In this document: one piece after another, positions 22,521 through 64,000 of the stretch
Layout: each line of letters starts with the position of its first letter
Numbering within the stretch: the stretch's first letter is position 1
Origin: Oligoflexales bacterium
GTDB lineage: Bacteria > Bdellovibrionota_B > Oligoflexia > Oligoflexales > RGVZ01
Reading direction: 5' to 3'
Length of the DNA stretch: 64,000 bases
Assembly: GCA_044236265.1 (NCBI GenBank)
Contig: JBIIGV010000233.1
Location: 5,889-69,888 of the forward strand
Position numbers and translations under genes: made by a program
Notes under the pieces: generated by a model
The model's input: the letters and a program-made list of their open reading frames with translations, nothing else
Told to the model about the DNA's origin: nothing
The model's database searches: none

Positions 22521-23546
22521 GTGATTCTGCGGATGATAGCCAGTGTTGCTTGTATGCTGTTTGGCATTAGCTTTTTTACTGCGTGTGGTGGCAAGGCTGG
22601 TGATCGAGTTGGCCAAAGAATGGCGCCTTCATTATCTGGTGATGCAGATTCCGAGATGGGCGAAAGTGATGATGCAACATCTGAGCCACCTGTCGATGCC
22701 GTGCTTCCGGGCGAAGAAGACATGGAATACCACAATCTTTTGAGAGCCTGTGGCGGAATCAATCCTGAGACTCCTGAAGCTTTGATTCTCGATCAGACGC
22801 TGAAAGCATATGCCACAAGGCAGCAAGGGACAGAGTCTATTGGTGGAATTCCCGTGCGCTATCAGGTCGACTTTGATGGCGAGCTGATCATCAAGTCATC
22901 TATCAATAAAAACGATTTGAATCGAACGCTTAGCCTAATTGAAGCAACTCCACAACTTGCAGCTAGAAAAGCACGTGAGCGCTTGGCTGCTCAAAGTGGT
23001 GAGTTGGCGACGGACTATGTTCCGTATTCCGAGCGGTCTGCGCTCTCTGACGTCGATGCTGCCTGGGATGGTGTGATCTGTACAATTCAACCTGCTCTTA
23101 AGACGGTCAATACCGTTGGTCGGCGCGTCGTTGTCACCTACAATAAACCGCTGCCCATACATGTTTCTCCGATTGCGGTGCGCGAGCGCTATGAATTGGA
23201 ACACACCGGCCAGCGTCGCTGGGAGCTGGAGGCCACGATTGTTGAGTCTGAGCGTCCTGATTTGCCGGTTGGCAGCGTAGTTCCTGGTTTTGTGGTAATC
23301 GAACCAGTCTCTCCAGAGCAAGTGGTCACTTTACCTGACGCATCGTCGATTGTGGTACGAGGGGATTTTGGCATTCGCATCCAAATTCGATTCGGTAGTG
23401 ATCAGATGACAAATATGATGGGATTAACTCCAGATTCAACCTATCTGATTGATCACACCAGGCGGATATTTCGTTCAATCACCGCTGATGTAAAAGATGG
23501 TTCGACTCCTGTCGTGACGTTCGCGGCTCAGGAGGCCGAACTGTGA
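22521..23546 (+). CDS. Hypothetical lipoprotein
   Basis: GTG start 8 nt after GGAGG. The signal plus lipobox is MILRMIASVACMLFGISFFTAC-GG. No family recognised. Confidence 0.6.
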   Translation: MILRMIASVACMLFGISFFTACGGKAGDRVGQRMAPSLSGDADSEMGESDDATSEPPVDAVLPGEEDMEYHNLLRACGGINPETPEALILDQTLKAYATRQQGTESIGGIPVRYQVDFDGELIIKSSINKNDLNRTLSLIEATPQLAARKARERLAAQSGELATDYVPYSERSALSDVDAAWDGVICTIQPALKTVNTVGRRVVVTYNKPLPIHVSPIAVRERYELEHTGQRRWELEATIVESERPDLPVGSVVPGFVVIEPVSPEQVVTLPDASSIVVRGDFGIRIQIRFGSDQMTNMMGLTPDSTYLIDHTRRIFRSITADVKDGSTPVVTFAAQEAEL

Positions 23547-24457
23547 AATATCTTAGCTTGATGCCAATTATCTTCGTCTGCGTATCGTGCGGTGCTAATC
23601 CGCCAGCAAAAAAGCCCTTGGCGAATGAATTTGAGTCAGATGCCAGTGCCGCGAATGTGGATGGCAAGTCTCCTTATGCGCTCGCATGCTCAGAGGCTGT
23701 CAGACGTGATGCTTACGGCCAAACTCTTGATGAGGCATTCAATATTTTGTGTGCCGGTGATTTGAAACCAAGTGGCACGTTTGTGAAAACACTAGCTGGA
23801 GATCCCTGGGACGGCTCGTCAGGCCTAAAGATTTTCAAGATTGGAAACGCTGAGCACGACACGGCAGCAAGAACGACAAAACTAACGGGCGGCGGCACAA
23901 TTCTAATTCCGATCGAGGCTGAAAAGTTTGCGGAGATGTCTCTTCTATATGCTGCGAATCCAGATTTGGCGGAGGAGCACGGAATTCGTCTTGTCGATGG
24001 ATTGAGGTCAGAACGGAAACTCGATGAAAATCTTGGGTCGATGGATGGCGTTCTCATGGGTAGAGTTACGTCGCGCTTATTGATCGAAAAAGAAATCAAT
24101 CATCAGAGAATCACGATTGAATATGACGCATCTCGCTCATCAGCCAGGTTCTCCCGAGATGTTTTTGTAACAGCGACAAAACTCATACGCCCGATCCAGG
24201 GCATCAAAGACATGTACAGCGTCAGTCTTTCTTACCCATGGGAGGGTGCAGTCGCCGTCACGACATTGATTATGACAAAGACCGACAATAAAAATCAGCC
24301 TGGTGTCGCTGCCGAAGCATTAATGAAAACATTTAAAGAGGGGATTCAGAACCTGCGCGCTAACGCAGTTGTCATGGGGCTGCGAGAATCAGAGTTATGG
24401 CTTCATGCCCCCGATGCGTGGGATGATCTATTGAACGGGGTTGCAAATGTGGATTGA
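23543..24457 (+). CDS. Hypothetical lipoprotein
   Basis: GTG start 7 nt after GGAGG, overlapping the upstream stop (GTGA). The lipobox is MKYLSLMPIIFVCVSC-GA. Confidence 0.6.
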   Translation: MKYLSLMPIIFVCVSCGANPPAKKPLANEFESDASAANVDGKSPYALACSEAVRRDAYGQTLDEAFNILCAGDLKPSGTFVKTLAGDPWDGSSGLKIFKIGNAEHDTAARTTKLTGGGTILIPIEAEKFAEMSLLYAANPDLAEEHGIRLVDGLRSERKLDENLGSMDGVLMGRVTSRLLIEKEINHQRITIEYDASRSSARFSRDVFVTATKLIRPIQGIKDMYSVSLSYPWEGAVAVTTLIMTKTDNKNQPGVAAEALMKTFKEGIQNLRANAVVMGLRESELWLHAPDAWDDLLNGVANVD

Positions 24458-25712
24458 AAAACAATTGAAGTTACATTCAGCCGCATTGATCTATTCTTTG
24501 TTGAACCCCTCAGTTGCAAGTGCTTATCCGTTTCTTTACACAGGAATTCATCAGATTGCTAACTCCGGTTTATCGGCTCTCGGTAGTTCGGATGCCACAG
24601 CAACTGCAGCAAATCCTGCGAATCTTTCGGACGCCCAAGCGACGAGTTCCTACGCAGATATGGCGATTGTATCCATGCAATACATATATGCACATACAAA
24701 CTACGATCCAGTTTATCTGAAGACCGTTGCCCCTCCAGTCAATCTTGGACTTAACGTGAAGACTGACTCAGGTCTCAGTTTCGGTCTTCTTGTGAGTCCT
24801 CGTACTGCTCCTGGCGCTAAACCTATCCGTGTGAATTCTGTGCCGACATTTACTGGTGCGGGATACGCCTTATTTAATCTAGATATTGAGCAAAGCGGAT
24901 TTATGGGTGGACTTGGTGCAGGTTACAAGCTTCCTGGAACAGGTTGGTCTGTCGGATTAACACTTCTTTATGGAGAGGATGCTCAGGAGATCTCCGCCTA
25001 TGCATCAGAAGGTGATCAAAGTTTGCCGGGCATGGATATGAAGTATTCTGGGCGTAGTATCCAGGGACTAATGGGAATCGCCTACGCAGGTGGTCGATCA
25101 TCTCTAGGTATGACTTTTAGGAGTCCTGCTGCCAGGCGTTATGATGGCGATATCGCAAGTGCATTGACAGATAACGTTTATGACCACTACAACGGCGTTT
25201 CTTATCATCCTGCACAGCTGACTGGAGCCGTGCAAGTTGGTAGAGGTGTGATGGATTATATGATGCAGGTAAATCGTGACTTTTGGTCGCTCGGACGCAA
25301 CGTCGCAAATCGCGGTTTACCTTATGGATCTCCAGAAACTGACTTCAAGGATAGTTTTGGGGTGTCCTTCGCTGCAAAGCTTCGCCAAAGCGACTCAACG
25401 TCGCTGTCGGCGTCCTGCGGGTATTATTCAGCTAACACGGGAGACGGAAGTGCCATCGATCACGGCTCAACGGCTCTCGATGACACCGCTATTCCGGTTC
25501 AAACTGGGATGGAGTTCGGTCAAATGGAGGCCATTCCCCGGGCTGTGCTGGGTGCTGGAATGATAAGAACCCTCGGAGACAACAGAGGATCTTGGGTTTT
25601 TTCCGGTAATTACCAAACGGGTACTAGGACCATTCCCGTGGGCCACAAGGGTGAAGGTTGGTACCATATCGACGTTTTCACGGTGGCGAGCGGGCTAAAT
25701 GTGAAATTTTGA
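24447..25712 (+). CDS. Outer-membrane beta-barrel protein, FadL/OmpP1/TodX-like
   Basis: The ATG at 24447 overlaps the upstream gene by 11 nt. Signal ...SLLNPSVASA, an N-terminal hatch-like ALGSSDATATAANPANL, alternating-hydrophobic strands, and a C-terminus GLNVKF with a terminal Phe beta-signal. Confidence 0.55.
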   Translation: MWIEKQLKLHSAALIYSLLNPSVASAYPFLYTGIHQIANSGLSALGSSDATATAANPANLSDAQATSSYADMAIVSMQYIYAHTNYDPVYLKTVAPPVNLGLNVKTDSGLSFGLLVSPRTAPGAKPIRVNSVPTFTGAGYALFNLDIEQSGFMGGLGAGYKLPGTGWSVGLTLLYGEDAQEISAYASEGDQSLPGMDMKYSGRSIQGLMGIAYAGGRSSLGMTFRSPAARRYDGDIASALTDNVYDHYNGVSYHPAQLTGAVQVGRGVMDYMMQVNRDFWSLGRNVANRGLPYGSPETDFKDSFGVSFAAKLRQSDSTSLSASCGYYSANTGDGSAIDHGSTALDDTAIPVQTGMEFGQMEAIPRAVLGAGMIRTLGDNRGSWVFSGNYQTGTRTIPVGHKGEGWYHIDVFTVASGLNVKF

Positions 25713-25981: not shown

Positions 25982-27691
25982 ATGCGAAGCAAAGCACGAC
26001 AAATTTTATCGTCGTTTAGGCAGCGGCTGCTCTTTTTGTGCATTTGCATATTCAGCACGATATTCATTAGCGCAAACGGTGATCCAATCGATGCGCAAAC
26101 TACTGACAACTCCGTCGCCTCTCGCATTTACTACGTCACAATACCCATTGATCGTAGCGTCGGTCCATATCTCAGACAGCTTAAATTACTGATTCCAGAC
26201 GTTCCTGCGCCTTATAACGATTCGAAGTTGTACGATGGTGACACGTGGGATCAACTCGTTGATAAATTATTAACGAAGAAAGATTCTAACGTGCGAGATC
26301 GTCGTACTCCGACGCAAGTGGTTGTTCCACTTCCAGCAGGATGTTTTGATTCTTCGATGAGTATGGAGAAGCGTGAACAGTGTTTGCAAAATCCTGCTGC
26401 ATTTGCAAAAGGCTATTTGACCCTTCGCCTCTATGACGTCAAGGACGGCGATTCACTTCCTGACGTTTTGTCTCGTCACGGCGTTTACCCGACTCGGGAA
26501 GGTTCCTCTTACTATAATCAGCAGCGATGGAGTGACGTTGTACAAAACTTCAACCCGCGCATTAATCAGTGGAATAATCTCAATGCAGGTTCAGTCTTTA
26601 TTCTTCCGCTCTTAAATGAGAGCGAATCCCGGGCAAGAGATGCTGCCAAGACTGTGGCTTCTGCTCCTGTCGTTGAATCTGAGCCAGCAATCTCGAATGC
26701 TTCTGATGTTAAGGACGCAGGCGAGCAGTTGCCTGTTGACGGGCAAGCGGTACCGCTTGATGTTGTTTCCCCGGTCACTGAGGTCGCGCCAACAGCGGCC
26801 ACACCGCCTGCACCAATTCCGCAGCCAGTTGTACCAGTTCCTGTGAAGCCGGCTCAACCGGTAGTCGCTGAAACGCCGGCTCCGCCGCGGCAGCCATCTC
26901 CTGCACCGAAGCCAGTGCAGATTGTTGCCGAGCCTCAAGCGCCAGAGGAAGAGGTTGTCTATGTAGACGAGCTTCCTCCTCCTAAAAAGATTGTATACGC
27001 ACGCGAACCACAGTCCGATCTATCGTTTAGTGTAGCCAGGAATGTTCTCTCTTCTGTTCGCATTCCAATGATGGCCCGTCAGAATCATTTGAATTTGAGC
27101 TATACTCGCTCGGATCCAGGTAATTCTGATTGGTGGATCAATGTCTATCAGTCTCCGATTGTCAAAGGTAAATCAGATTCGCCTTATTTGATCGAGACCG
27201 ACGACTCTAGTGAACGTTTTAAATTCAGTAATCTTGAGTTGGGCACGAAGTTCTACATGTCAGCTCCAGTTCCAACCTGGAGTATCTACGCCGGGTTGTA
27301 CGCAAGATGGATGGCCCTCGATCTACGCTATTGGATTAGTAACAACAGTGATGAAACAGCCTATCTCGTAAATCGCAAAGCCTTTAGAAATGTTGGGGCT
27401 GGTGTAACTGCTGGGGTAGATCATTCACGAGGCAATGTCCGCTATCGTTTCAATGTTGCCAAAGACCTTTACGAATTTGTCGATCAGGCGGTGCATATTG
27501 ATCGAACGAATGCGCGCTTTTCTGCATCGTTCCGATTCCCGAAAGTTAAGGAACGTGGAAAGACGCAGCGACATGTGGATCTCTTCACAGAGTCTGAGAC
27601 GCTAAATGTGAATGTAATCAGTGATTCGGCAATGCTTCAGGTGACAATGAAGCGCTTGTCGGTGGGTGTTGGTGCTGGTTTGGTGTGGTGA
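25982..27691 (+). CDS. Secreted three-part protein: LysM-like segment, Pro-rich spacer, C-terminal beta-barrel-like domain
   Basis: Signal LLFLCICIFSTIFISANG. A weak LysM-like segment is LYDVKDGDSLPDVL...NLNAGSVFILP. The Pro-rich region at about 26771-26990 reads APTAATPPAPIPQPVVPVPVKPAQPVVAETPAPPRQPSPAPKP. The last roughly 230 aa have alternating strands and end ...VGAGLVW with a terminal aromatic residue. Confidence 0.55.
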   Translation: MRSKARQILSSFRQRLLFLCICIFSTIFISANGDPIDAQTTDNSVASRIYYVTIPIDRSVGPYLRQLKLLIPDVPAPYNDSKLYDGDTWDQLVDKLLTKKDSNVRDRRTPTQVVVPLPAGCFDSSMSMEKREQCLQNPAAFAKGYLTLRLYDVKDGDSLPDVLSRHGVYPTREGSSYYNQQRWSDVVQNFNPRINQWNNLNAGSVFILPLLNESESRARDAAKTVASAPVVESEPAISNASDVKDAGEQLPVDGQAVPLDVVSPVTEVAPTAATPPAPIPQPVVPVPVKPAQPVVAETPAPPRQPSPAPKPVQIVAEPQAPEEEVVYVDELPPPKKIVYAREPQSDLSFSVARNVLSSVRIPMMARQNHLNLSYTRSDPGNSDWWINVYQSPIVKGKSDSPYLIETDDSSERFKFSNLELGTKFYMSAPVPTWSIYAGLYARWMALDLRYWISNNSDETAYLVNRKAFRNVGAGVTAGVDHSRGNVRYRFNVAKDLYEFVDQAVHIDRTNARFSASFRFPKVKERGKTQRHVDLFTESETLNVNVISDSAMLQVTMKRLSVGVGAGLVW

Positions 27692-27748: not shown

Positions 27749-27775
27749 TATAATAGGAAATGCTTAAGCATTCCT
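27749..27775 (+). promoter_or_regulatory. Consensus -10 box followed directly by a 21-bp near-perfect palindrome, upstream of the giant gene
   Basis: TATAAT at 27749-27754. The palindrome is AGGAAATGC-TTAA-GCATTCCT at 27755-27775. No good -35 element is present (TTGGTG lies only 11 nt upstream). Confidence 0.3.
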
Positions 27776-27830
27776 GTAGTTTGCCGAATCCCTCCTAGTA
27801 CGGGCGTGAGAACTAATTCGGGTAGTGCTA

Positions 27831-30800
27831 ATGTTTCTCAAACGACTGAAATTTATGGCGCAGTTCAAAGCTGGTCAAGCTTTGCTATCTATTGTCATAT
27901 TCAGTTTCCTACTCTCCTGTGAATCCAACTTTTCGGGTAAAGTCCTTAACTCCAATAGAAAAAATAATCCATTTGCTACGGCAAATCTGTTGGAGGGTCA
28001 GGTTGCGTTTAAAACAACAAAGTTGTCGACAAAAGCACGCGGAACTCGCCTTTCTGGAGAAGCCTGTACCGATCAAGCAACGGTCTACTTGACACACTTT
28101 GCCACATATCAAGACAGCTTAGTTATTGAGGTTCGCAAACGCATTCTATCGGTTAAGGCCGATAGCGATGGGCGCTTTAAATTTACGAACTTGAAAGAAC
28201 AGGGCGTAAATCTTCAGTCAAAAAATGATATTTATAAGGTGGAAGCAGAGCGTTGCAGCGACTACTACTCAAGGGTCGTGACAGGAGCGCAGGAGCAAAA
28301 CCTAAGTGCAGCTGGTACCGCATTTGACTTCACACTCGACAAAACTGTTATCAAAGCAAGTCTTGGATCAGACGACTTTTACGCCAAACTGGAGGATTTG
28401 GATAAACTGTACAGTCTTGCTGACACTCGCAACTCGGTCGAAGGTGTATTGGAAACACTTCGCACGAGTCGTGAAACACAAAAATCATATAGCAATATTT
28501 TTGGTGCTGAAGATGTCACTCTTCAGAATATCGAACCCCGAATTGTAATTGAGTCCGTACCCCTTAAAATTCCCGCAACTATTCTGACCCGTTTTGAAGT
28601 TTTAGCTGTTTACTATTCCGCCGAATTCAATGTCGATTATCGGTGGAAGTTAGACGGCGAAGTTGTCAGCACTGACCCTGGGTTTAGTTGGCGCCCGACG
28701 TCGACCCAGCTCGGTCTGCACACTATCGAGTTGAGTGTTGGGGTGCGAAGCCAGTTTAACCTGGACGCATACCTTAACTCTAAGATCATGAATTACTCGA
28801 TCAATGTTGTTGAAGCAACCTCCGATCCACGAACGCCCGTCGTGTCGAGTTTTGCTTTGGCTAACGCCGCGGCTGGTGGATTTATCAATAATGCTCATGC
28901 TTCGGACGCAGAAGCTGTCGCAAGTTTGGTTGCCACCAATTATGATCAAGCCTCATATGCAATTGTCGCCCCGAACGTCACTTGCAATGAGTCTACGTCA
29001 TTCCCGCTTGCTTCGATCCCGACTTTTGGAAGCTTTACAGTAGATGGAAGTTACAAAGTCTGTGCAAAGGTTTCGCGAAGTGATGGGGGCACTGTTTACG
29101 TAGCAACTCAAACGTTGCAACGGGATGTTGTGATACCATCCGTGAGCTTTGTCGATGTGTTGCCCAAGGCTGGATCGACGAACCCGAAGCCGACAATCAA
29201 AGGAACGGCATCCGAGGCATCTTTAGTCTCTCTGTACTACGATGCAAGTTGTTCTTCTGCGAAGTCTTCAGCAACGGCAAACACAGTTTTTGCGTCACCA
29301 GGAATGACCGTTGCATCTGATGTTAATTTAAACAATACGACGACAATCTATGCGCAGGCGGTTGATCCGGCTGGAAACCCATCGCCGTGCTCTTTGATGT
29401 TGACGTACACCCACGACGACGTAACGCCCATTGTTAAAAATATCAAAGCTAATGTGGCCGATAATGGCTACAAGGCTGGCGATGTTATCCCGATTGAAGT
29501 GGAATTCTCTGAGCCAGTAAAAGTAACTGGCGTGCCGACTTTGACTCTTGAAACAGGATCGTCTGATGTTGTGGTTAATTACACATCTGGATCTGACACC
29601 AAGTTTCTGATTTTCAACTTTACGGTCGGATCAAACCAGACAGCTGCGGACCTCGACTACATTTCAGCGACGGCTCTGTCTGCTTCCGGTGGTAGTATTC
29701 AGGATCAAGTTCAAACTGATGCAGTCCTAACATTGCCAGCCCCTGGGGCAGCTGGCAGTTTGTCGGCAAATAGTAACATTCTGATTGATACGACCATACC
29801 AGTAGTCACATATGCGTCGATCTCTCCTTCGTCCCCAGGTACAAGTCTGACACCAGCCGTATCGATGTCTCTAAGTGAAAACGCGACCGTGACCTTATAC
29901 GGTAACAGTAGCTGTTCGGATGCAATTTCATCGGCTACGGCCCTGTCGGGAACCGGTTTACAAGTTATTACGACGAATACGCTCGCAGCTAACGCTGCGA
30001 CAACGATCTTTGCCCGCGCCGTTGATGGTGTGACAAATCAGTCTGTTTGTCACAGTATGATTGTCTATACGCATGACAATATTGCGCCAACCGTCGCGTC
30101 TTTTGCGAGATCATCTGGCCAAAATTCATTCACTAATTCCGTACCAATAAATTTTGGCGTTCAATTTTCTGAAGTGATCGACCCATCAACATTCACGGCA
30201 AGTGATATTTCTAACACGGGTACTGCGACCGATATCGTTTGGACTGTTACGGACTCTGGTGATCACCGCAACTTTGTTGTAGCTGCGACGCAATCTGGAA
30301 ACGGTACATTAAAGCCATCTTTTGCAGCGACTGCGGTGAGTGATCCGGCAGGGAATGCAATTCAGTCCATTTCGACGTCATCTAATGACGTGGCATATTC
30401 TATCGCCCTATTCACTGTAACGTTGAATCAAACAGCTGGGCAGGTTGATCCTGCAAACTCGTTGCCGATATCGTTCACAGCCGTGTTCTCTGATGAGGTG
30501 GGTACAGGTCAGTTTGTCGCTCAAGATATTGTTCAGCAGGGCACTGCTTCAGGAATCACCTGGAATTTGGCAACTACGGATAATATCACATGGACGATCA
30601 CAGCGACTGCGATAACGGGTCAGGGAACCGTCGTTCCTCATATTCCTCAAGATGCAGTTTTAGACCGCTACGGAAACAAAAATGGTGCGTCAACTCACAC
30701 AGATAACTCCGTGGTTTATGACATTACGGCTCCGACGATCACATTTACAAATCTTACTCCAGCAAACCCTTCTTCGGAGCTGCGTCCAACGCTCAAAGGT

Positions 30801-63800: not shown

Positions 63801-64000
63801 TCGAGAACGATCACCACGAGCAACCTGACATCAGATACGGCGATATCGATCTACGCTATGGCAGTGGATGCTGTTAATAACGCCTCTGGTTGCGAAATCA
63901 TGACGTCATATACCTATGACAGTATTGCACCAGCAATCAGTAGCTTCTCAGTCAAGGTTCCACAGGTTGCTGTGACAAACTCTGTACCAGTGAACTTTAC
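27831..64000 (+). CDS. Giant repetitive surface lipoprotein (Ig/cadherin-like adhesin-type), 5' complete and 3' end beyond the window; at least 12,056 codons
   Basis: An in-frame TGA lies at 27807-27809 and the ATG at 27831. I translated 27831 to about 35230 by hand without meeting a stop. Fifteen junction codons between 30717 and 62304, and the final codons (63960 onward, PQVAVTNSVPVNF), are all in the same frame (coordinate mod 3 = 0). The ORF track lists no + strand ORF in this frame after 27691, which is expected only if the frame never meets a stop. The N-terminus MFLKRLKFMAQFKAGQALLSIVIFSFLLSC-ES is a signal peptide plus lipobox, with the Cys30 codon at 27918-27920. Confidence 0.9.
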   Translation, partial: MFLKRLKFMAQFKAGQALLSIVIFSFLLSCESNFSGKVLNSNRKNNPFATANLLEGQVAFKTTKLSTKARGTRLSGEACTDQATVYLTHFATYQDSLVIEVRKRILSVKADSDGRFKFTNLKEQGVNLQSKNDIYKVEAERCSDYYSRVVTGAQEQNLSAAGTAFDFTLDKTVIKASLGSDDFYAKLEDLDKLYSLADTRNSVEGVLETLRTSRETQKSYSNIFGAEDVTLQNIEPRIVIESVPLKIPATILTRFEVLAVYYSAEFNVDYRWKLDGEVVSTDPGFSWRPTSTQLGLHTIELSVGVRSQFNLDAYLNSKIMNYSINVVEATSDPRTPVVSSFALANAAAGGFINNAHASDAEAVASLVATNYDQASYAIVAPNVTCNESTSFPLASIPTFGSFTVDGSYKVCAKVSRSDGGTVYVATQTLQRDVVIPSVSFVDVLPKAGSTNPKPTIKGTASEASLVSLYYDASCSSAKSSATANTVFASPGMTVASDVNLNNTTTIYAQAVDPAGNPSPCSLMLTYTHDDVTPIVKNIKANVADNGYKAGDVIPIEVEFSEPVKVTGVPTLTLETGSSDVVVNYTSGSDTKFLIFNFTVGSNQTAADLDYISATALSASGGSIQDQVQTDAVLTLPAPGAAGSLSANSNILIDTTIPVVTYASISPSSPGTSLTPAVSMSLSENATVTLYGNSSCSDAISSATALSGTGLQVITTNTLAANAATTIFARAVDGVTNQSVCHSMIVYTHDNIAPTVASFARSSGQNSFTNSVPINFGVQFSEVIDPSTFTASDISNTGTATDIVWTVTDSGDHRNFVVAATQSGNGTLKPSFAATAVSDPAGNAIQSISTSSNDVAYSIALFTVTLNQTAGQVDPANSLPISFTAVFSDEVGTGQFVAQDIVQQGTASGITWNLATTDNITWTITATAITGQGTVVPHIPQDAVLDRYGNKNGASTHTDNSVVYDITAPTITFTNLTPANPSSELRPTLKGTVSEASIVTLYFDSSCSAAKSDAVANTVLPMPGLAPNIDVAADTMTPIYARAIDPAGNISVCTLMVNYNHDGTPPFVVSVGSTKADGFYKAGTVIPIAVNFSENVFVVGTPQITLETGSTDRVVNYSSGSGTPTLVFNYTVQAGDTAADLDYLDTSAFALNGSTIKDWVDNDAVMTLPSTGSATSIAGQKSIVIDTAVPAVSFVSISPVSPGMSRTPSVTVNVSENASGIALFSNPTCGSAISASIAGSSGNNTVVTNTLTADALTPIYAQVTDLAGNVSSCANMTGYQHDGTPAVVTSVSSSLANGTYGVGQVIPIEVSFSEVVYVNGTPFLTLETGATDAVANYASGSGTNKLTFNYTVVAGENTLDLELTSLSAINLNSGTIKDLAGNDSTVTVTPLAGGSSLSGQKAIVVDTTGPTLTYASVSPVPPATSRTPAVTMSLSEPAAVTLYSDSDCSAAISSSVSFAAGVGRTITTNTLTANATTPIFAKGIDAVNNASACTSMIVYTHDDTPPVVMSFARASSQIAQTNSVPINFTLTFSEPINPSSLTAGDISNIGNATGVTWSISNSGDNATFTVSAIAASNGTLQPRLAAASIADHAGNTNVAGADSPNNVGYFVAVLTVTMNQAAGQGDPVNGLPISYNVVFSGAVGANSFTTGDIVQNGTAGGITWTLSTTDNISWLLRATAIATPGTVIPSIAASSVIDEFQNQNAASTSTDNTVVYDITPPTLSFSSLTPSNPSQSMTPTIIGTASEPSTVTLYYDSGCSVAKSATVPNTSFASPGITPTGNVAADTATVIYGMATDTAGNISACTSLVSYVHDGTGPSVTSVTSTLADGPYKAGQVVPVFVNFNENVNLAGTLQLALETGAIDAVLNYVSGSGTSSLRFNYTVVAGDTSLDLDYVSSASLALLTGTLRDAVGNDAVLTLPAPGASGSMGANKALIIDTTAPTMTFSNTLPVSPGNTQTPQVTFTISENVPTVRLFTDNACSVGAAPASTGLMGSNTVTTSALPANTGTSLYVRSTDAAGNVSSCTLLTTYTHDGIPATVTNVSSSSTNGTYGVGNTVAIVVTFSEIVNVTGAPQLTLETGAIDGVANYVSGSGTTALTFNYVVSAGESSLDLDYGSTTALGLNGGTIRDRAVNNADLTLPAVGGASAIAAQKGIIIDTTAPTITYSSISPVPPSASMSAFVTLQVSEASTVTLYSNPGCSAAISSAKAMISGGDQMISTVNLPTNTSTTIYARAVDPVNNVSECTNMVVYTHDNIAPQVDSFTRAATQASYTNSLPMNFTLTFSEPIIPETLTGSDFVNMGTATAVTWGVADSGDHRTFTVSATASGNGTLRPRLASGAITDLAGIGNPLNATSDNSVNYSIAAFTVTVNQAPGQGDPVNSLPINFRVVFSGAVGSNSFTASDVVQNGSAEGVTWNLSTTDNITWTVSATAVNIQGTVIPFISPNTVLDEFGNNNAASTSTDSSVVYDIAAPVLTFASVTPSNPAATRTPTVLGTSSEPSTVTLYYDSDCSTAKSSAASNTVFASPGIALTSNVDADVTTTIYGRAVDVAGNVSICTSLVGYQHDGTSPTVTNVTSTLANGPYKAGQLIPIQVTFSEPVFVTGAMQLTLETGLSDAVVAYTVGSGTSTLTFNYTVAAGNTAADLDYVGTSALALISGTIKDSVGNDANLALPSPGSSGSLGANKSLWIDTTAPVLAFTSINPVSPGISQNPQVTFTVSELVPTLRLYTDAICSAAISGWNTGSAGANTIATSTLAGNVATSIFAQGTDPAGNTSNCTSLTTYLNDGLAPTVTGVTSTAADGTYGGGQVVPIKVDLSEVVFVTGTPQLTLETGASDAVVNYSSGSGTTSLIFNYTIVPGHDSVDLNYASMSALVANGGSIKDLAGNDANLALAALDAASSLASQKAIVIDTTVPVMSYVSISPVPPAQSQTPTVTFSLSEPSTVTLYRESGCSTAISSAIPLAAGPAQSITTNTLTSNAATTIFAKAIDTVTNPSECTQLVVYSHDNTSPAVSSFARNATQPAMTNSLPINFTITFSEPINPSSFVSTDLSNGGTATGVTWFINNTGDNQSFTVSVTNSGNGTIIPRLASGSIADIAGNTNSGITSASNSVNYSVAPYTVSVNQAPTQIDPVNTLPVNFRVVFSSAVGNNTFTPADIVQNGTATGITWSLSTTDNITWTVAATAISGGSGTVIPSIAENTVTDEFGNINGASTSTDNTVIYDVTPPVVTYSSLAPANPSSELRPSFLGSVSEISTVTLYYDGSCANARSATVPNTQFASPGITVNSNVTANNSTIIYAKAVDTANNESACTSLVSYLHDSIGPSVVSVSANIADGSYKAGMVLPITVTFTENVYVNGTLQITLETGTFDAVVNNSSGSGTDTLVFNYVVAPGEVTPDLEYSGSAALALISGTIKDAVGNNAVLTLPATGASGSLGLNKSIIIDTTAPTLTYTNIFPASPGNTQTPQVSLDLTEPVTVLRLYSDASCTAAISPASTGTIGPNTVTTNTLTANASTTIYGQGTDAAGNVSLCTLLTSYQHDGISPTVTSVSSSSANGSYGVGQTVAVTVVFSEPVLVSGTPQITLETGSSDAVVNMTTGTGTNTLTFNYTVRAGDTTGDLDYLSNAALALNGGIIKDPAENLAVLALPNTGGATSIAGQKNIVIDTTAPVITYQSVSPSSPAMSQTPTLTVTMSETATVTLYSNGSCSSAVSTPTVLNGGVGRTISTNALPANTTTTLYAKAVDPVNNVSSCSVMVVYTHDITSPTVSSFTRSAGQLASTNSVPVNFTLTFSEPINPNSFTAADISNFGTSTGVLWTVTNTGDNTSFIVAATVASNGTLQPRLASGGVTDVAGNSNFGNVNSSNTVNYFVAAYTVMVNQNDGQAESTNALPINFTVVFSGAVGNNTFDTSDIVQNGTASGITWSLSSSDGITWNLSATSILGDGTVIPSVAANTVVDEFGNNNGASTSSDNSVNYDVTLPIVAFSSVSPSNPAATLKPTIRGTVTESSTVALYYDSGCSTAKSSAMSNTVFASPGITVTGNVNANTTTAIYAKAVDAVGNVSSCTYLTTYNHDGIGPVVTGVNATMSDANYKAGQTIPITVTFNELVFVTGTPQITLETGSADAIVNYTSGSGTNTLTFNYIVFAGDTSADLDYISTTALTFNAGTIKDGVGNSATLTLAAPGSSGSLGANRAIIIDTTAPVITYNSIAPTSPGISLAPQLTLTLSEAVTAFRFYSDPVCSSPISSSASMGSGSNTRATDTLAANVVTTIYGQSVDQAGNTSLCTMLTSYRHDDVGPTVSSVTSTANNATYGVGAVIPVTVTFTEPVFVTGTPQITLETGVTDAVVNYSSGSGTSTLRFNYTVALGQNTGDLEYVGTSSLSLNSGSILDTAGNAVDLALPALGSAGSIAGQKNIVVDTTAPTLTYESIAPVSPGMSQMPIVTVALSEPANVTLYSDHTCSAAISGSTSLSSGSGQAITTFTLTSNTTTDIYGKAVDPVSNASSCLNLVVYTHDNVAPSVASFVRAAGQPSFTNSIPINFTMTLNEPVDVSTITASDISNTGTATGITWSVTSVSNTVFTVSATSSGTGTLIPRLANGSFQDVAGNVSISQFTASESVNYTASPFTVTINQASSQGDPSATDPVNFTVVFSRAVGSGSFTAADIVQNGSLGSITWTLTTSDDITWNLAASGMAATGTLIPSIASGTVVDLYGNSNAASTSTDNTVNFDITPPTLAFASLSPSNPAATLRPTIRGTASKASTVTLYYDVSCSTAKSAGASNTSFATPGITPTANVNSNTTTIIYAKAVDSLGNASSCTSLVTYSHDGVSPTVTGVSSTLANGPYKAGQLIPITISFTEVVTVTGTPSLTLETGAADSVVNYSSGSGTNTLTFNYTVFNGDTAADLDYVSSAALALNNGSIKDPVGNDATLTLPAPGALNSLGSNKNLVIDTTAPALTYTSILPVPPSSSSTPQVSLSSNEAATNLQLYSNSSCSTAISSPASGTVGGNVISSTGVNLNAPTTVYAQATDSAGNISTCTLMTTYVHDDVPPTITSVSSSSGNGTYRVGQSLAITATFSDPVTVSGVPQLAMETGAVDTVANYSSGSGSSTLTFTYTIALNDTSSDLDYAGTSALALNGGSIIDAAGNNAALTLPAPAGTGSLGAQKALVIQTAPPVLSYTSIAPTSPGTSRQPVVTLSVNEAATVTLYSDSGCGTAISTGTAISTGAGQTITAYTLPSNTGTSIYGKAVAAYGNTSACTNLVVYTHDNIAPTVTSFVKAAGQNSFTNSIPLNFTLTFSEPINASSFTVNDLMNIGTATGVSWEIVPVSSTVYTVSVTSAGNGSVTPQLVSGTVTDPAGNATANNYDSADTVNYTAAAFTVSVNQASGQADPVNVLPVSYTVVFSGAVGSSSFDVSDVTQAGTASGVTWGLSTADNITWTLTATAASSSGTIIPSIAADRVVDAFGNNNSAATSTDKTVTYDITSPTVTFASLSPANPSSSLTPTIRGTVSEASTVTLYYDVNCSTGKSAATASTAFASPGIVVNANVNSNTSTAIYAKAVDNVGNESSCTSLVSYTHDGVSPTITNVTSGLADGTYKAGQVVPVSLTFSEAVTVTGTPKISLETGATDAVVAYSSGSGTNTLTFNYTVFSGDVSADLDYISTTALALDGGTIRDHVGNNAVVTLPAPGTSGSLAANKALVVDTAPPSVTFTSISPVSPGSSRTPQLVVNTSEAMSDIQIYTDASCTTSVSSSQSAGVGSKSITTSPLPANAQSSLYAYGLDIAGNPSACTLMTSYLHDDLGATIAFVTSTSSNGTYGVGNQIVITVRFSEAVYVTGVPQLTLETGASDAVVNYASGSGTNTLSFNYNVLSGQSSVDLDYQSTTSLSLNSGTIKDVSGNNATLTLPTPGDSNSLAGQKDIVIDNTAPTITYTSISPPSPGISQTPTVTMDLSESATVTLYSDNTCTAAISNATLLSGGAGQTVTTISLTPNATTTIYAKGLDAVSNASTCTNLVSYVHDNTPPLASTFARASGQPALTNSLPINFTVAFNEPIAASSFTSADISNGGTATGTTWTVTAVSSNTYTIAATTANNGTLIPRIALGGVTDIAGNATTSMNNSSETVNYSTAALSVVINQAAGQADPVASGPITFTVQFSNPVNPGTFTAADIVQNGTATGISWALTTTDDTTWNLTASGMAGSGTVIPSIADTTVVDVFGNNNAASTSTDNTVTYDITAPSLTFSSLSPSNPGSTLTPSVRGTASKASTVTLYFDSLCSTSKSAATASTAFSSPGITLTGLVNSNTTTTIYAMAVDALGNASGCTQMVVYTHDGAPPTVTSISSTLADGYYMAGQLIPITVTFSENVTVTGTPNLALETGSTDATINYTSGSGSNVLTFNYTVAAGDTSSDLDFVGSSSLVLNGGTIRDVIGNNAILTLPAPGTAGSLAANKALVVDTAAPSLTYTSINPVSPNSSQTPQVTLVLSEAAQNVQLYSNPVCNNAISSSSVGSVGTNVITTTTLLSNATTSIFAKMTDLAGNDSFCVSMTNYANDMTAPGVSSVTSTSTNGTYVVGQTIPVSITFSENVYVTGTPQLTMETGATDTVADYASGSGTNTLVFNYVIALNDASLDLDYHSAGALGANGGTIKDLAGNNAVLTLASPGAASSLGANKAIVIQTTLPTISSASISPASPGSTRTPTVSMTLSDASTVTLYSNSDCSTAISAAKSLVAGSGQTVTTYTLASNVATQIYGKAVAAFGNTSVCTSLISYTHDDVAPFVSSFVRASGQNAFTNSTPVNFTLTLSESINVSTLTAVDISNAGTATNVVWSVASVSSSVFTISANSSDNGTIIPRLAANAVADPAGNTNVAQASATDTVSYTAATYTVTLNQATGQSDPINALPVNFTVVFSSAVGSSSFDVSDITQTGTASGITWTLASADQITWTLSVTAVTTPGSIVPMIASNRVVDEFGNQNGQSASTDNSVVYDTAAPVVTFSSVTPANPSSSLNPRFFGSVSEASVVTLYYDVSCTTAKSSATANTVFASPGILVTGAVNANTTTTVFAKAVDTAGNASVCTNIVTYTHDGIGPTVTDVTTGLANGSYKAGQAVPISVTFSEVVTVTGTPNLTLETGATDAVLAYSSGSGSNTITFNYTVFAGDTSADLDYVATTSLVANGGTIKDAVGNDATLTLPAPGAAGSLGGNKGVIIDTTAPSVSYTSISPVSPGATRTPQVTISLSEAASSVELFSDAGCSASVSAAAAAAAGSNTITTTNLTANGSTSLFAKMTDIAGNASSCSLMTSYTHDGNDPTVTVVSSTKADGTYGTGTLIPITVTFSENVYVTGTPRITLETGATDALVDYTSGSGTTTLTFNYTVGAGEASADLDYESTGALVLNSGTIKDLSGNNANLALPALASASSLAGQKAIVLDQTAPTITFTSINPVSPGMSQTPTLTLSLSEAATVTLYTDSGCSAAVSSATSLASGAGQTIATNSLNANVSTSLWAKGVDLVGNVGSCSSMVTYIHDSAAPTVSTFARAGGSPTNSLPVNFTLTFNEPINPASLTSADFTNAGTATGVAWSVTNSGDSTTFTVAATVSGNGTLQPRLASGGMTDVAGNANASAVTASNSVSYSVAAFSVAINQAAGQSDPVRTLPITFTAVFSDAVNPTTFDASDIVQNGTAGGITWNLSSTDNITWTITASGLGASGSVIPSIASSTVKDTFGNDNAASASTDNTVSYDITVPTFSSITVSPANPAATLTPTVLGVVSKASTVTLYYDSSCTTAKATPAANTVFATPGITVTGNVNPNTTTVIYGQAVDALGNTSLCTNLVTYTHDGAAPTVSGVSANLANGPYKAGQVVPVEVTFSENVTVTGVPQITLETGATDAVVTYTSGSGTNKLTFNYTVFAGDTSADLDYVATTSLALNGGTIKDSVGNNATLTLPAPGASGSLGASKDLVIDTTSPTLAYTSITPVSPGTTRTPQVALTISEGVTNIQLYSNALCNAAVSSAAAGTSGANTITTNNLTADNSTLIFAQATDAAGNASACTSMTSYTHDGTAPTITGVSSTSANGTYRVGQTIPVTVTFAENVYVTGTPSLLMETGSTDTAASYVSGSGTSTLTFNYVVALTDQSSDLDYQSAAALTVAGATIQDLAGNNATLTLAAPGATNSLADQKAIVIQTTKPTIAYTSISPASPGTSRTPTVSMTLSEAATVTLYTDNTCNTAKSAATALSAGAGQTVTSYTLTANAATDLYAQAVGAFGNTSLCTMLVSYTHDSIAPTVTSFVRASGQAAFTNSVPVNFTMTFSEAIDPALFTANDISNSGTANGVTWTVTNSGNNTTFTIAATSSGNGTLIPRLGVTGIADPAGNTNGSPYDTTQNVSYTAATFTVTVNQASGQADPVKTLPAQYTVVFSSAVGNSSFDVIDVSNSGTATGVVWGLATSDNITWTLTATSASSDGTIIPVIAQNTVQDEFGNQNGAATATDRSITFDSAAPTFSGPYTVSPANPSSSLTPTIRGVTSEASTVTMYYDSGCITPKSAGTANTAFVTPGITVNSNVNANGTTTIYAKAQDTAGNESSCTTIVATYTHDSMGPSVTNVTSSQSNGSYKVTAAQIIPISLTFSEAVNVTGTPTLTLETGATDAIATYASGSGTSTLVFNYTVFAGDTSSDLDYAGTAALALSGGTMTDAVGNNATLTLPAPGAAGSLGANKALIIDTTLPTVAFTSISPVSPGASLSPQVTINSSEAGSMELFSTSNCNSSISTAITGSVGANTIATNSLAPNASTSIFAKVTDAAGNASSCTSMTTYLHDGVDPTVTSVSSTAANGSYGTGQTMAITVSFSEVVYVTGTPNLTLETGATDAVINYASGSGTNTLTFNYTVASTHNSLDLDYESTTALLLNGGTIKDVSLNNAVLTLPTVGGVNSIAGQKAIVIDNVVPTITYTSMTPASPAMGLTPTLTMSLSEAATVTLHSDHTCTAPISVDTALSSGAGQTITTQALTANATTSIYAKAIDVVNNPSVCTSLTTYTNDSLAPTVVSFARAAGQGSVTNSVPVNFTITFSEDMSAASFTGADISNTGTATGVTWAVTQVSSTVFTVAASSANNGTLIPRLANASVTDVVGNATTAQADATNSVNLVNGGLTVTVNQASGQADPTNGSTINYTVVFSRAIDPTTFASDDIFQNGTATGLTWTITTSDNITFNLAASGMSATSTVIPSISSTRVKDTFGNDNAASTSTDNTVNYDVTAPTLTFASISPSSPASTLMPMVSGTASKPSTVTLYYDSGCSTAKSSAESNTVFALPGIALTANVSSNTATSIYGKAVDALGNASSCSALTTYTHDGISPTVTNVTAVHADGTFKAGELIPIKVTFSEAVTVTGTPRLTLETGSVDAVVNYTSGSGTAELTFNYTVFAGDTTSDLDYISTSALALNGGTIVDHVGNAASVTLPAVGGVASIAGQKSLVIDTTAPTVAFTSITPVSPSNNLTPAVALTLSETASDVRLYSDSGCSSALSNAANAAAGPYTITTTTLTANQTNNIYARTTDVAGNQSACTLMTNYAHDGVAPTVTSVSASSANGTYHVGQTVAVTVAFSEVVTVSGTPQLTLETGASDAVIDYVSGSGSNTLTFNYTVALSHASPDLDYTSTASLAANGGSVQDGSGNNATLTLPGVGGPNSIAGQKAIVIQTSKPTIAFTSITPSSPGTSQTPTVTMSLSDASTVTLYSDGGCSTAISAPTALSAGAGQSVITQTLAANGQTQIHAQAVAAFSNTSLCTSLVSYTHDNVAPSVTSFARAGGQVEFTNSVPANFSITFSEAINPASLTAADITNAGTAAGVTWTVTNSGNNTTFTVAASTAGNGTIQPRLAIGAVTDPAGNASGSQVDASNSVSYTQATFTVTLNQASGQADPVKTLPVLYTVVFSSPVGASSFTDADIQNQGSGTTVTQWQLETADNVTWTLKAMAVTGNGTIMPVITANSVQDAFGNLNGASTSTDRTVTYDTTAPTLTYVALTPANPSTSLMPTILGTASETSTVTLYYDGGCSTPKSVATANTQFATPGIAVTGNVNSNASTVIYAQAVDTAGNLSSCTSLVTYNHDGVGPTVTNVTSTASDGNYKVTNAQTIPVTVTFSEVVTVTGTPTLTLETGATDAVVSYSTGSGTNTLTFTYTVFAGDTAADLDYVSASSLVFNGGTVKDGVGNNATLTLPSPGAAGSLGANKAIIIDTTAPTIGFAVISPTSPATSQTPTVTVTLSEGLSAVQLFSDSSCTASASVSSNGSAGNKNIVTTTLNANATTSLYAKGTDIAGNVSICASLTSYTHDNAGPTVVSVTSSLANGTYGLGQVVPVAITFSEVVSVTGTPTLTLETGAVDGVASYVSGSGTNTLNFSYTVGAVDGTADLNYASTTALALAGGSILDASTNPADLTLPALANASSLGGQKAIVLDLTAPTITYASIAPTSPGTTATPTITMTLSEAATVTLYSNSGCSASISDAKALVSGVGQTITTNALTANTEISIYAKGIDTVNNASGCASLTTYTYDSVAPAVSSFAVAGGQVAVTNSVPINFTLTFSEAINPSSFTAADISNAGTATGVDWSVTNSGDNTSFTVSATLAGNGTIQPRLATASVADPAGNLNAAVSTATGSVSYSQAAFTVAINQASGQSDPVRTGPITFTAVFSSAVGSSTFSAGDVAQSGTAANVTFAVTSLDDITWTITASGMSGSGTVVPTIASNRVKDLFGNDNAASTSTDNTVSYDVTTPTLTFASVGSGNPGSSLTPTILGTVSKASTVTLYFDSGCSTAKSAPTANTAFASPGITLTGNVNANTSTTIYGKAVDSLGNETCSLLTTYNHDGAGPSVVSVAVNKANGSYKTGEVIPVQITFSEAVTVTGAPQITLETGATDAVVDYTSAASSTVLNFNYTVSPGDTTADLDYASTTALALNSGTIRDAVGNNATLTLPAVGGAASIGGNYAIVIDTTAPSVTYNSITPASPASNLNPQVALTLSEAVANVQLYSNSGCSAAVSTATAGTAGANTITTSALSANTTTNLFAQASDAAGNQSACTSMTAYLHDGVAPTVQSVTATAANGTYRVGQTIPVTVTFSEAVTVSGTPQLTLETGATDAVVNYASGSGTATLTFNYVVGLNDSSADLDYTSTAALALNSGTIADAAANNATLTLPTVGGAGSLGANKALVIQTTPPTVTYNSISPSSPNSSQTPTVTMTLSDAATVTLYSNGGCSTAISAGAALSAGSGQTVTTYTLSPNVTTQIFAQAVAAFGNTSSCTSLVSYTHDNVAPTVSSFVRATSPVQAQFTNSVPVNFKITFSEAINSGSFTASDIINTGTASGVTWTVSNSGDNINFTVAASASGNGTLIPRLAANAVTDSAGNNNGSQYDATESVSYTAALYTVTVNQASGQADPVNSLPVNYTVVFSSAVGSSSFAVGDVTNIGSASGVTWTLTDSGDGITWNLSATATGAGTIIPSIAANTVKDAFGNDNAAATTTDRTVTYDNVVPTFSSISVSPAATSSSLTPTILGTVSESSTVTLYFDSGCTTPKSAAAANTVLASPGVQVTSNVNSNTTTTIYGKAIDAAGNASACATLATYTHDGVGPTVTNVSSTAADGTYKVTAAQTIPVTITFSENVVVTGTPTITLETGSTDAVVSFSSASGNTMTFTYTVFAGDTATDLDYVGTGSLVLAGGTIKDTYGNNATLTLPSPGAASSLAANKAIVIDTAAPMISYTSIAPVSPGSSLTPQISISLSEAVSSVQLFSDGSCSSSASSASTGSAGAKTITTSALTANATTALYAQATDIVGNISSCSLMTSYRHDGAAPTVLSVSSSLANGTYGLGQVIPVTVTFSEVVTVTGTPQLTLETGATDAVVNYVSGSGTAALTFNYTVAVGHGSSDLDYTTNTALAFNGSTIVDGSGNAAVLTLPAPGTGSSLAGQKAIVIDLVAPTIAYSSISPASPGMSQTPTLTITLSEAATVTLYSNNSCTASISAATSLASGSRTITTSNLTSDTAISIYAMAVDAVNNASGCEIMTSYTYDSIAPAISSFSVKVPQVAVTNSVPVNF
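29125..30716 (+). repeat. First, shorter repeat unit of the giant gene (5 modules: A-B-A-C-D, about 530 codons)
   Basis: Translation gives A (VIPSVSFVDVLPKAGSTNPKPTIKGTASEASLVSLYYDASCSS...PCSLMLTYTHDDVTP), B (...YKAGDVIPIEVEFSEPVKVTGVPTLTLETGSSDVVVNYTSGS...ILIDT), A, C (..FTNSVPINFGVQFSEVIDPSTF..WTVTDSGDHRNF..) and D (..FTVTLNQTAGQVDPANSLPISF...SVVYD). Confidence 0.85.
30717..32972 (+). repeat. Super-repeat 1 (752 codons, modules A-B-A-B-A-C-D)
   Basis: Starts YDITAPTITFTNLTPANPSSELRPTLKGT. Approximate module ends are A 31025, B 31388, A 31685, B 32051, A 32345, C 32660 and D 32972. C-module motif WSISNSGDNATF. Confidence 0.85.
32973..35228 (+). repeat. Super-repeat 2 (752 codons)
   Basis: Starts YDITPPTLSFSSLTPSNPSQSMTPTIIGT. 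I translated it fully by hand, and the order is A-B-A-B-A-C-D. C motif WGVADSGDHRTF. Confidence 0.85.
35229..37487 (+). repeat. Super-repeat 3 (753 codons)
   Basis: Starts YDIAAPVLTFASVTPSNPAATRTPTVLGT. C motif WFINNTGDNQSF. Confidence 0.8.
37488..39743 (+). repeat. Super-repeat 4 (752 codons)
   Basis: Starts YDVTPPVVTYSSLAPANPSSELRPSFLGS. C motif WTVTNTGDNTSF. Confidence 0.8.
39744..41996 (+). repeat. Super-repeat 5 (751 codons)
   Basis: Starts YDVTLPIVAFSSVSPSNPAATLKPTIRGT. C motif WSVTSVSNTVF (the V-type variant, one residue shorter). Confidence 0.8.
41997..44249 (+). repeat. Super-repeat 6 (751 codons)
   Basis: Starts FDITPPTLAFASLSPSNPAATLRPTIRGT. C motif WEIVPVSSTVYT (V-type). Confidence 0.8.
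44250..46502 (+). repeat. Super-repeat 7 (751 codons)
   Basis: Starts YDITSPTVTFASLSPANPSSSLTPTIRGT. C motif WTVTAVSSNTYT (V-type). Confidence 0.8.
46503..48755 (+). repeat. Super-repeat 8 (751 codons)
   Basis: Starts YDITAPSLTFSSLSPSNPGSTLTPSVRGT. C motif WSVASVSSSVFT (V-type). Confidence 0.8.
48756..51005 (+). repeat. Super-repeat 9 (750 codons)
   Basis: Starts YDTAAPVVTFSSVTPANPSSSLNPRFFGS. C motif WSVTNSGDSTTF. Confidence 0.8.
51006..53261 (+). repeat. Super-repeat 10 (752 codons)
   Basis: Starts YDITVPTFSSITVSPANPAATLTPTVLGV (the PTFSS junction variant). C motif WTVTNSGNNTTF. Confidence 0.8.
53262..55523 (+). repeat. Super-repeat 11 (754 codons)
   Basis: Starts FDSAAPTFSGPYTVSPANPSSSLTPTIRGV. 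C motif WAVTQVSSTVFT (V-type). Confidence 0.8.
55524..57782 (+). repeat. Super-repeat 12 (753 codons)
   Basis: Starts YDVTAPTLTFASISPSSPASTLMPMVSGT. C motif WTVTNSGNNTTF. Confidence 0.8.
57783..60044 (+). repeat. Super-repeat 13 (754 codons)
   Basis: Starts YDTTAPTLTYVALTPANPSTSLMPTILGT. C motif WSVTNSGDNTSF. Confidence 0.8.
60045..62303 (+). repeat. Super-repeat 14 (753 codons)
   Basis: Starts YDVTTPTLTFASVGSGNPGSSLTPTILGT. C motif WTVSNSGDNINF. Confidence 0.8.
62304..64000 (+). repeat. Super-repeat 15 (partial; A-B-A-B-A and the start of C, cut by the window end)
   Basis: Starts YDNVVPTFSSISVSPAATSSSLTPTILGT. Module ends are marked by IDTAAP at about 62975, YRHDGAAP at about 63270, IDLVAP at about 63640 and YTYDSIAP at about 63935. 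The window ends inside ...VTNSVPVNF of the C module. Confidence 0.8.

Follow-up and report, generated by a model that had tools for sequence, protein, structure and literature searches.

A putative lipoprotein signal peptide at the start of a giant repeat protein gene in an Oligoflexales bacterium, and the predicted outer-membrane barrel gene upstream of it

The DNA analysed here (the window) is a stretch of 64,000 nucleotides of contig JBIIGV010000233.1 from an uncultured freshwater Oligoflexales bacterium (assembly GCA_044236265.1), which contains a large part of a giant gene encoded on the forward strand. The gene opens at position 27831 with a segment predicted to encode a type II (lipoprotein) signal peptide (27831–27920, forward strand), as judged by the PROSITE PS51257 rule, its decoy rate, and conservation. 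The mature giant protein is encoded from 27921 to the end of the window at 64000, and beyond it to the end of the contig, and consists of an N-terminal module (approximately residues 80–330) followed by immunoglobulin (Ig)-like super-repeats. Its upstream neighbours encode a predicted outer-membrane barrel protein, lipoproteins, an acyl-CoA dehydrogenase, and a helicase. Judging from its sequence, the giant protein very probably carries a signal peptidase II (SPII) anchor, and the barrel gene is the best candidate for a route to the cell surface.

The possible starts of the giant gene are bounded by an in-frame TGA at 27807–27809 (forward strand), located from the sequence and the orthologue starts, which leaves GTG at 27825, ATG at 27831, and ATG at 27855. 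Translation from the ATG at 27831–27833 gives MFLKRLKFMAQFKAGQALLSIVIFSFLLSC followed by ESNFSGKV..., where Glu31 corresponds to the GAA at 27921–27923. An earlier note on this DNA had read Cys30 (TGT, 27918–27920) as the end of a lipobox L-L-S-C, preceded by a basic n-region and a hydrophobic core, and the sequence matches this reading exactly. Orthologues start at a homologous M-F-L-K or M-F-F-E, and the more distant among them have a stop codon two codons before it; for this reason the ATG at 27831 is taken as the start. A start downstream of codon 30, which the note had named as evidence that would refute the signal, is accordingly not borne out. The frame fills the rest of the window (12,058 codons, counted from the GTG at 27825) and reaches the end of its contig, with 15,156 codons from the ATG at 27831, no stops, and no ambiguous bases. 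The contig edge cuts the gene and leaves its own C-terminus unassembled, so that the protein has at least 15,156 residues. It is rich in Thr, Ser, and Ala, and contains 0.8% Cys in regularly spaced pairs. The GGxGxD motif, previously reported as missing from the translated part, does not occur once in all 15,156 residues. Among the domain matches are Pfam Big_5 and, below its cut-off, a Leptospira OmpL47-type domain of NCBIfam, while an AlphaFold2 (AF2) model of residues 1–460 places beta-sandwiches at residues 233–345.

The signal was called by a scripted version of the PS51257 rule, together with its decoy rate and comparative evidence. It comprises an n-region from M1 to Q16, with basic residues at K4, R5, K7, and K13, and an h-region from A17 to S29 that runs into the lipobox L27-L28-S29-C30. 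The rule gives a match from both ATGs, with the Cys at position 30, or at position 22 from the second ATG, which agrees with the earlier statement that a start at 27855 would not change the call. Lys or Arg residues are found within the first seven positions (K4, R5, and K7, or K13 from the alternative start M9), at least six uncharged residues precede the box F-L-L-S-C, and Cys30 lies within the position range of 15–35 allowed by PROSITE. The hydrophobic core A17–S29, with a mean Kyte-Doolittle value of ~2.1–2.9, spans 13 residues, and is therefore too short for a stable transmembrane helix. The signal holds no twin-arginine motif, and export through Sec, not Tat, is therefore expected. Among 11,215 internal Met decoys, taken from long reading frames of this genome, the rule matches 20 (0.18%), and a stricter version only three. 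The lipoprotein candidates of the genome most often carry Ser at −1 and Leu at −3, and LLSC is found four times among them, including the giant protein. Taken at the level of sequence, positions 27831–27920 probably encode a working SPII signal peptide.

The comparative evidence comes from an alignment of eight sequences, which includes this protein, its orthologues from four genomes of the same genus (44–45% identity), and those from three metagenome contigs (45–83%). Cys30 is invariant across this set (44–83% identity), while the lipobox appears as LLSC, VTAC, VASC, LTSC, or LSSC, all of them made of allowed residues. The h-region diverges freely, including a four-residue indel, and within the signal only M1, A14, and A17 are invariant besides Cys30. 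A fixed Cys in a drifting h-region is the pattern expected of a signal that is retained for its function and not for its sequence. The 20 residues after Cys30 (E31-S-N-F-S-G-K-V-L-N-S-N-R-K-N-N-P-F-A-T; 27921–27980, forward strand) are much better conserved than the signal itself, and S32, F34, S35, G36, V38, N40, N42, N46, P47, and A49 are identical in all eight sequences. In the wider family, a strand of the type "[ST]-G-x-[VI]", read by eye from the sequences, is often found soon after the Cys. This conservation suggests that the base of the protein may sit near the membrane or near a partner.

A phmmer search with residues 1–340 against 1.84 billion representative proteins (E ≤ 0.001) returned 202 proteins, in 129 of which residues ~100–310 of the query align as one stretch within the N-terminal 300 residues of the match. 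A lipobox, in the form of [AGS]-C right after a hydrophobic run, is present in 112 of these 129 representatives, and most of the remaining 17 start inside the module or narrowly miss the threshold. When 19 distant relatives (20–26% identity to the query) were aligned, the lipobox Cys was among only nine invariant columns. A word-indexed homology search with residues 1–340, taken from a 2,000-residue query, gave no matches. The N-terminal module thus defines, on the basis of these alignments, a family of predicted large lipoproteins. Its representatives have a median length of 1,666 residues and a maximum of 3,786, and the giant protein is an extreme member of the family, by a factor of at least four. 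The module is patchily distributed: five of the genus's 14 genomes carry it, and, of the 131 genomes searched across the phylum, only two others. Since it is patchy in the phylum and yet represented by 129 metagenome clusters, most members must belong to other lineages.

These data bear on whether the lipobox is used at all. The segment could instead act as an ordinary Sec signal, cleaved by signal peptidase I (SPI), or as an uncleaved signal anchor, with the conserved Cys serving elsewhere, for example in a disulphide. Such a role would fit a Cys-poor protein in which regularly paired cysteines point to structural functions of this residue, and the canonical apolipoprotein N-acyltransferase Lnt is apparently absent. 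The family data speak against it, since in 112 of the 129 distant relatives the Cys stands directly behind a hydrophobic run whose residue −1 is Ala, Gly, or Ser, while the rest of the signal varies. SPI follows the rule of von Heijne, with small residues at −1 and −3, to which L-L-S-C and F-L-L-S conform poorly, and an h-region of ~13 residues is too short for a stable transmembrane helix. Together with the presence of the diacylglyceryl transferase Lgt and the signal peptidase LspA, each in several copies, this makes an unused lipobox improbable. The claim of a lipoprotein signal made in the earlier note is hence supported by the PS51257 rule with its 0.18% of decoys, by a Cys that is invariant in the eight orthologues and the 19 relatives, and by the enzymes encoded in the genome.

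As the gene is cut by its contig end, the far end of the protein was read from two orthologues, on which the inspection of the C-terminus proposed earlier was carried out. The orthologue from a close relative (G084) is assembled in pieces of 3,063 and 11,093 codons (at least 14,156), and that from a second genome (G085) in pieces of 6,449 and 7,342 codons (at least 13,791), both split only by assembly gaps in the repeats. The last 1,100 residues of both orthologues hold a Big_12 domain, at least 13 RCC1 repeats (WD40_RLD, E = 1.6e-184), and a last Ig-like domain. Over the same 1,100 residues of the G084 orthologue, no match was obtained with the NCBIfam models for type IX secretion system (T9SS), PEP-CTERM, and similar tails, nor with the T9SS sorting domain (TIGR04183 / PF18962, Por_Secre_tail). 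GGxGxD motifs are absent from the C-terminal pieces of the two orthologues (their final 1,858 and 2,009 residues), so that no RTX region was found, and no hydrophobic tail was seen in the C-terminal sequence. No known C-terminal signal being present, the lipid at the N-terminus is left as the one recognisable means of anchoring or sorting, with the propellers at the far tip.

The gene directly upstream of the giant gene (25982–27691, forward strand) encodes a partner protein of 569 residues with a predicted 10-strand outer-membrane beta-barrel, assigned from its conserved adjacency, AF2, and Foldseek, and its end is separated from the giant gene by 139 bp. This protein consists of a signal peptide, one N-terminal domain (two in its distant homologues), a Pro- or Ala-rich linker, and a C-terminal domain that ends in ...GAGLVW. 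AF2 models residues 344–568 as ten long strands, with predicted local distance difference test (pLDDT) values mostly of 60–92 (means of 10-residue blocks) and lower values in two loop blocks. Foldseek places this domain among outer-membrane barrels, the best match being the 10-stranded OpcA (1k24; E = 1e-6, template modelling score 0.54). No Pfam family, LysM included, matches the partner protein, even at E values up to 10. Its homologues amount to 11 among 5.8 billion proteins, all of them from this small clade, and in each of the seven other loci with enough flanking sequence the barrel gene immediately precedes the giant gene, in the same direction, with a gap of 138–163 bp.

Comparison with the close relative G084 indicates that both genes behave as a unit. 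The flanks of the locus in this genome (G000) and in G084 share 93–96% DNA identity, whereas at the protein level the barrel and the giant N-terminus are only 43–46% identical, and the repeats 51–60%. Moreover, the barrel and giant genes are inverted relative to the exonuclease-helicase-dehydrogenase flank between the two genomes. Because the barrel and the giant N-terminus have diverged and been inverted together between near-identical flanks, they form one cassette in both genomes, which looks like a hypervariable, replaceable surface-protein island.

The comparison among genomes also bears on the possibility that the long frame is an assembly chimera or a decaying pseudogene, and that the signal heads no real giant protein. 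The source is a metagenome-assembled genome of 234 contigs and 88.7% completeness, the contig end cuts the gene, and repeats are difficult for assemblers. Nevertheless, such an artefact is highly improbable, given that 45 kb are free of stops and that the same architecture, including the N-terminus and the partner gene, appears in seven independent assemblies. The orthologues of at least 14,156 and 13,791 codons are interrupted at contig ends only, and the repeats of different genomes are 50–63% identical as protein, unlike those of a collapsed or duplicated assembly.

The genome encodes the enzymes expected for lipoprotein processing, with profile matches above cut-off for Lgt (PF01790, three copies), LspA (PF01252, two copies), and the carrier LolA, and lipoboxes on BamD (C-S) and on a Pal-like protein (C-T), as expected in a diderm. 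Several observations, however, weigh against a working lipoprotein anchor at the outer membrane. At the signal itself, Leu at −2 falls outside the tightest consensus [ASTVI], though within the set of PROSITE, and no Shine-Dalgarno-like sequence is obvious upstream of the ATG at 27831. The AF2 model built from the eight-sequence alignment has pLDDT values below 50 over the first 232 residues of the giant protein, and what connects the barrel with the function proposed for it is gene adjacency alone. Canonical Lnt (TIGR00546) scores below cut-off here and in 12 of the 13 congeneric genomes, among them one that is 97% complete in eight contigs, and exceeds the cut-off in just one of the 14. Finally, the residue at +2 is acidic in all eight orthologues (Glu in three, Asp in five), and Asp at +2 retains lipoproteins in the inner membrane in Enterobacteriaceae. 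As for Lnt, lipoproteins may stay diacylated in its absence, or another enzyme may act in its place; the weak matches to the Lnt model come only from soluble nitrilase-like proteins of ~280 residues.

The acidic +2 residue raises the possibility that the giant protein is a true lipoprotein whose anchor avoids the Lol system and stays in the outer leaflet of the inner membrane. In this case the fibre would either remain in the periplasm or extend through the peptidoglycan and the outer membrane, for which the neighbouring barrel is a possible passage; the long Pro-rich linker of the barrel protein could reach across the periplasm. Asp or Glu at +2 is found in 8/8 orthologues vs. only 20 of the 249 strict lipoprotein candidates of the genome (8%). 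Four lipoproteins of known class point in part in the same direction: a HlyD-family adaptor, of a class normally associated with the inner membrane, is also acidic (C-D-D), and +2 is Ser in BamD and Thr in the Pal-like protein. However, a second lipoprotein adaptor carries Ser at this position, and four proteins are too few for a rule. The +2 rule itself is established only for Enterobacteriaceae, other bacteria relying on other positions, and the distant members of the family mostly have Ser, Gly, or Thr at +2, acidic residues being found in few of them. A chain of well over 100 Ig-like domains would also be hard to fit in the periplasm. Retention in the inner membrane is thus considered rather unlikely, while the chances of an outer-membrane or surface location for the anchor are even. 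The earlier note had called the sorting outcome unclear from the Glu after the Cys; Glu31 is indeed present.

Assuming a location at the outer membrane, the following route can be proposed. The nascent chain would be targeted to SecYEG, Lgt would add a diacylglycerol to Cys30, and LspA would then cut between Ser29 and Cys30, so that the lipidated Cys becomes residue 1; the acylation is deduced here from the signal and the enzymes. LolA would carry the anchor to the outer membrane, where the strictly co-occurring barrel protein may help the chain to cross or hold it in place, and the fibre would lie outside the cell. As judged from the orthologues, the result would be a base-anchored stalk, composed of the N-terminal module, the Ig-like super-repeats, and a distal head of two RCC1-type beta-propellers plus an Ig-like domain. 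Fibrillar adhesins are laid out in this manner, but the mode of anchoring would be that of the Leptospira Lig proteins, as opposed to that of type I secreted RTX adhesins. Most likely, then, the cell holds a micrometre-scale fibre by a fatty-acid anchor at the start of the protein, which is an extreme-size case of a known kind of anchoring (that of an Ig-repeat surface lipoprotein) and not a new mechanism.

Regarding the barrel, a role in helping the giant chain across the outer membrane, or in holding it there, is put forward tentatively, as one possibility; it is the most concrete lead for the surface route whose need had been pointed out in the earlier note. A more specific proposal, in which the barrel and the 20 conserved residues after the Cys form an undescribed device dedicated to moving or holding a megadalton lipoprotein at the outer membrane, is more doubtful. 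By analogy, the segment after the Cys might be threaded through the barrel, for example as RcsF is through OmpC/F, and the device would then be a functional counterpart of Slam (type XI secretion system), built from an unrelated barrel.

Among known systems, the closest layout is that of LigA and LigB from Leptospira, also a diderm, which hold a lipobox signal followed by a long run of bacterial Ig-like domains, and, in LigB, a distal part without repeats, with the lipid anchor at the N-terminus. The OmpL47-type match mentioned above points in the same direction. Nevertheless, Lig proteins have ~1,200–1,900 residues, compared with at least 15,156 here, and no Big_2 domain was detected in this protein, where Big_5, Big_12, and Big_13 were found instead. 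The RCC1 propeller head and the dedicated barrel gene are further differences, so that the likeness is claimed for the layout only.

The giant RTX adhesins of Gram-negative bacteria (LapA, SiiE, and MpIBP) also combine a cell-proximal anchor, a stalk of 100 or more Ig-like domains, and distal ligand-binding domains. Contrary to the protein described here, they lack a cleavable N-terminal signal and hold RTX nonapeptides, a C-terminal secretion signal, and a module for retention in a TolC-like pore. The giant protein, on the other hand, has an SPII signal and no GGxGxD motif, and no genes for an ATP-binding cassette transporter, membrane fusion protein, or TolC adjoin it.

With regard to the barrel, the Slam (type XI) system of Neisseria offers a parallel, in that an outer-membrane barrel protein with a periplasmic N-domain is encoded beside the lipoprotein that it may serve. 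Slam, however, is a 14-stranded protein of the DUF560 family (PF04575) whose known substrates are small, whereas the partner protein has ten predicted strands and no Pfam match. No match to PF04575 was found in the genome, and the control genomes gave none either. Inverse autotransporters (intimin and invasin, type Ve) likewise join a periplasmic N-domain of the peptidoglycan-binding type, a barrel, and displayed Ig-like domains. Unlike in this locus, these parts belong to one polypeptide with LysM and a 12-strand barrel, while here they are distributed over separate genes 139 bp apart, the barrel has ten strands, LysM was not detected by Pfam (E up to 10), and the Ig chain bears a lipoprotein signal of its own.

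With respect to size, Ebh from Staphylococcus aureus and SprB from Flavobacterium are chains of 6,000–10,000 residues that pass through Sec behind an N-terminal signal. Neither of them is a lipoprotein: Ebh, from a monoderm, combines an SPI/YSIRK signal with a membrane anchor at the C-terminus, and SprB an SPI signal with a C-terminal T9SS domain. The earlier note had argued that a lipid-anchored N-terminus implies the threading of more than 12,000 residues after Sec, plus some route to the surface. The SPII reading on which this argument is based stands, but Sec export of huge chains is not without precedent, as the two proteins above and a survey of giant proteins indicate. In that survey, signal peptides are found on proteins of up to ~20,000 residues, and are almost limited to those below 20,000 (PMC11573180). 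Lipoprotein signals are not mentioned in the surveys of giant proteins that were consulted, this one among them, and a literature search for giant lipoproteins returned only papers on serum lipoproteins.

Should the anchor work in the way read from the sequence, the protein, with more than 1.5 MDa, would to our knowledge be larger by far than any other lipoprotein described, and this in a bacterium with two membranes. It would put to the test the capacity of Sec to translocate 15,000 residues or more in one chain, as well as lipoprotein trafficking by LolA where canonical Lnt is apparently absent. It would also mean that giant adhesin-like fibres need not be substrates of type I secretion. Of greater interest is the path by which a lipoprotein of this kind gets to the outer membrane or through it, a task that the conserved barrel may perform. 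For lipoprotein surface exposure outside Neisseria, Bacteroidota, and spirochaetes, the locus offers a concrete two-gene system, since the barrel gene could be transferred to a laboratory host together with the start of the giant gene (a few hundred codons).

Several contigs of the same genome were considered as carriers of the missing C-terminus and rejected. Contig C64 holds a 5'-open frame of 7,822 codons, which belongs to a separate giant gene. Its counterpart in G084 is a complete frame of 8,582 codons that shares 77% identity with it and lies well inside a 1.3-Mb contig (G084:C1:1233701-1254000), with a lipobox of its own (...GVMFVSAAC/SKG, the stroke following the Cys) and a different type of repeat. 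No such barrel gene lies upstream of this second giant gene. The C-terminus of the protein bears a CHB_HEX_C domain followed by 165 residues without an assigned domain, and these last 165 residues of the C64 frame have no counterpart in the genomes that carry an orthologue of the giant gene. Contig C30 joins contig C28 into a smaller paralogue, which shares the repeat type of the giant protein and holds its own lipobox (LTAC/G) and a long Gly-rich (GGxGG-type) C-terminal domain. Contig C199 encodes a small RCC1 lipoprotein, and the tail of contig C88 a transposase. The lipoboxes on the C28/C30 paralogue and on the 8,582-codon gene suggest that the very large surface proteins of this lineage are generally provided with lipoprotein signals, and a lipid anchor at the N-terminus seems to be the norm among them.

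The transposase frame of C88 is of the IS200/RAYT-like tyrosine type and occupies the last ~830 bases of that contig, where similarity to the G084 flank stops; it may mark the border of the cassette. Outside the cassette, in the conserved flank, positions 22521–25712 of the window hold three co-directional genes without Pfam matches. Two of them encode lipoproteins (FFTAC/GGK and VCVSC/GAN), and the third a protein of 423 residues that ends in ...GLNVKF and has the look of a FadL/PorV-type barrel. The related genomes derive from lake metagenomes. No Rfam matches were obtained within the window. In the 139-bp gap upstream of the giant gene, positions 27755–27775 hold a 14-base perfect palindrome, AATGCTTAAGCATT, which is retained in a 79–83%-identical relative and replaced by a different hairpin in the same place in more distant orthologues, and which may be an operator or an RNA hairpin.

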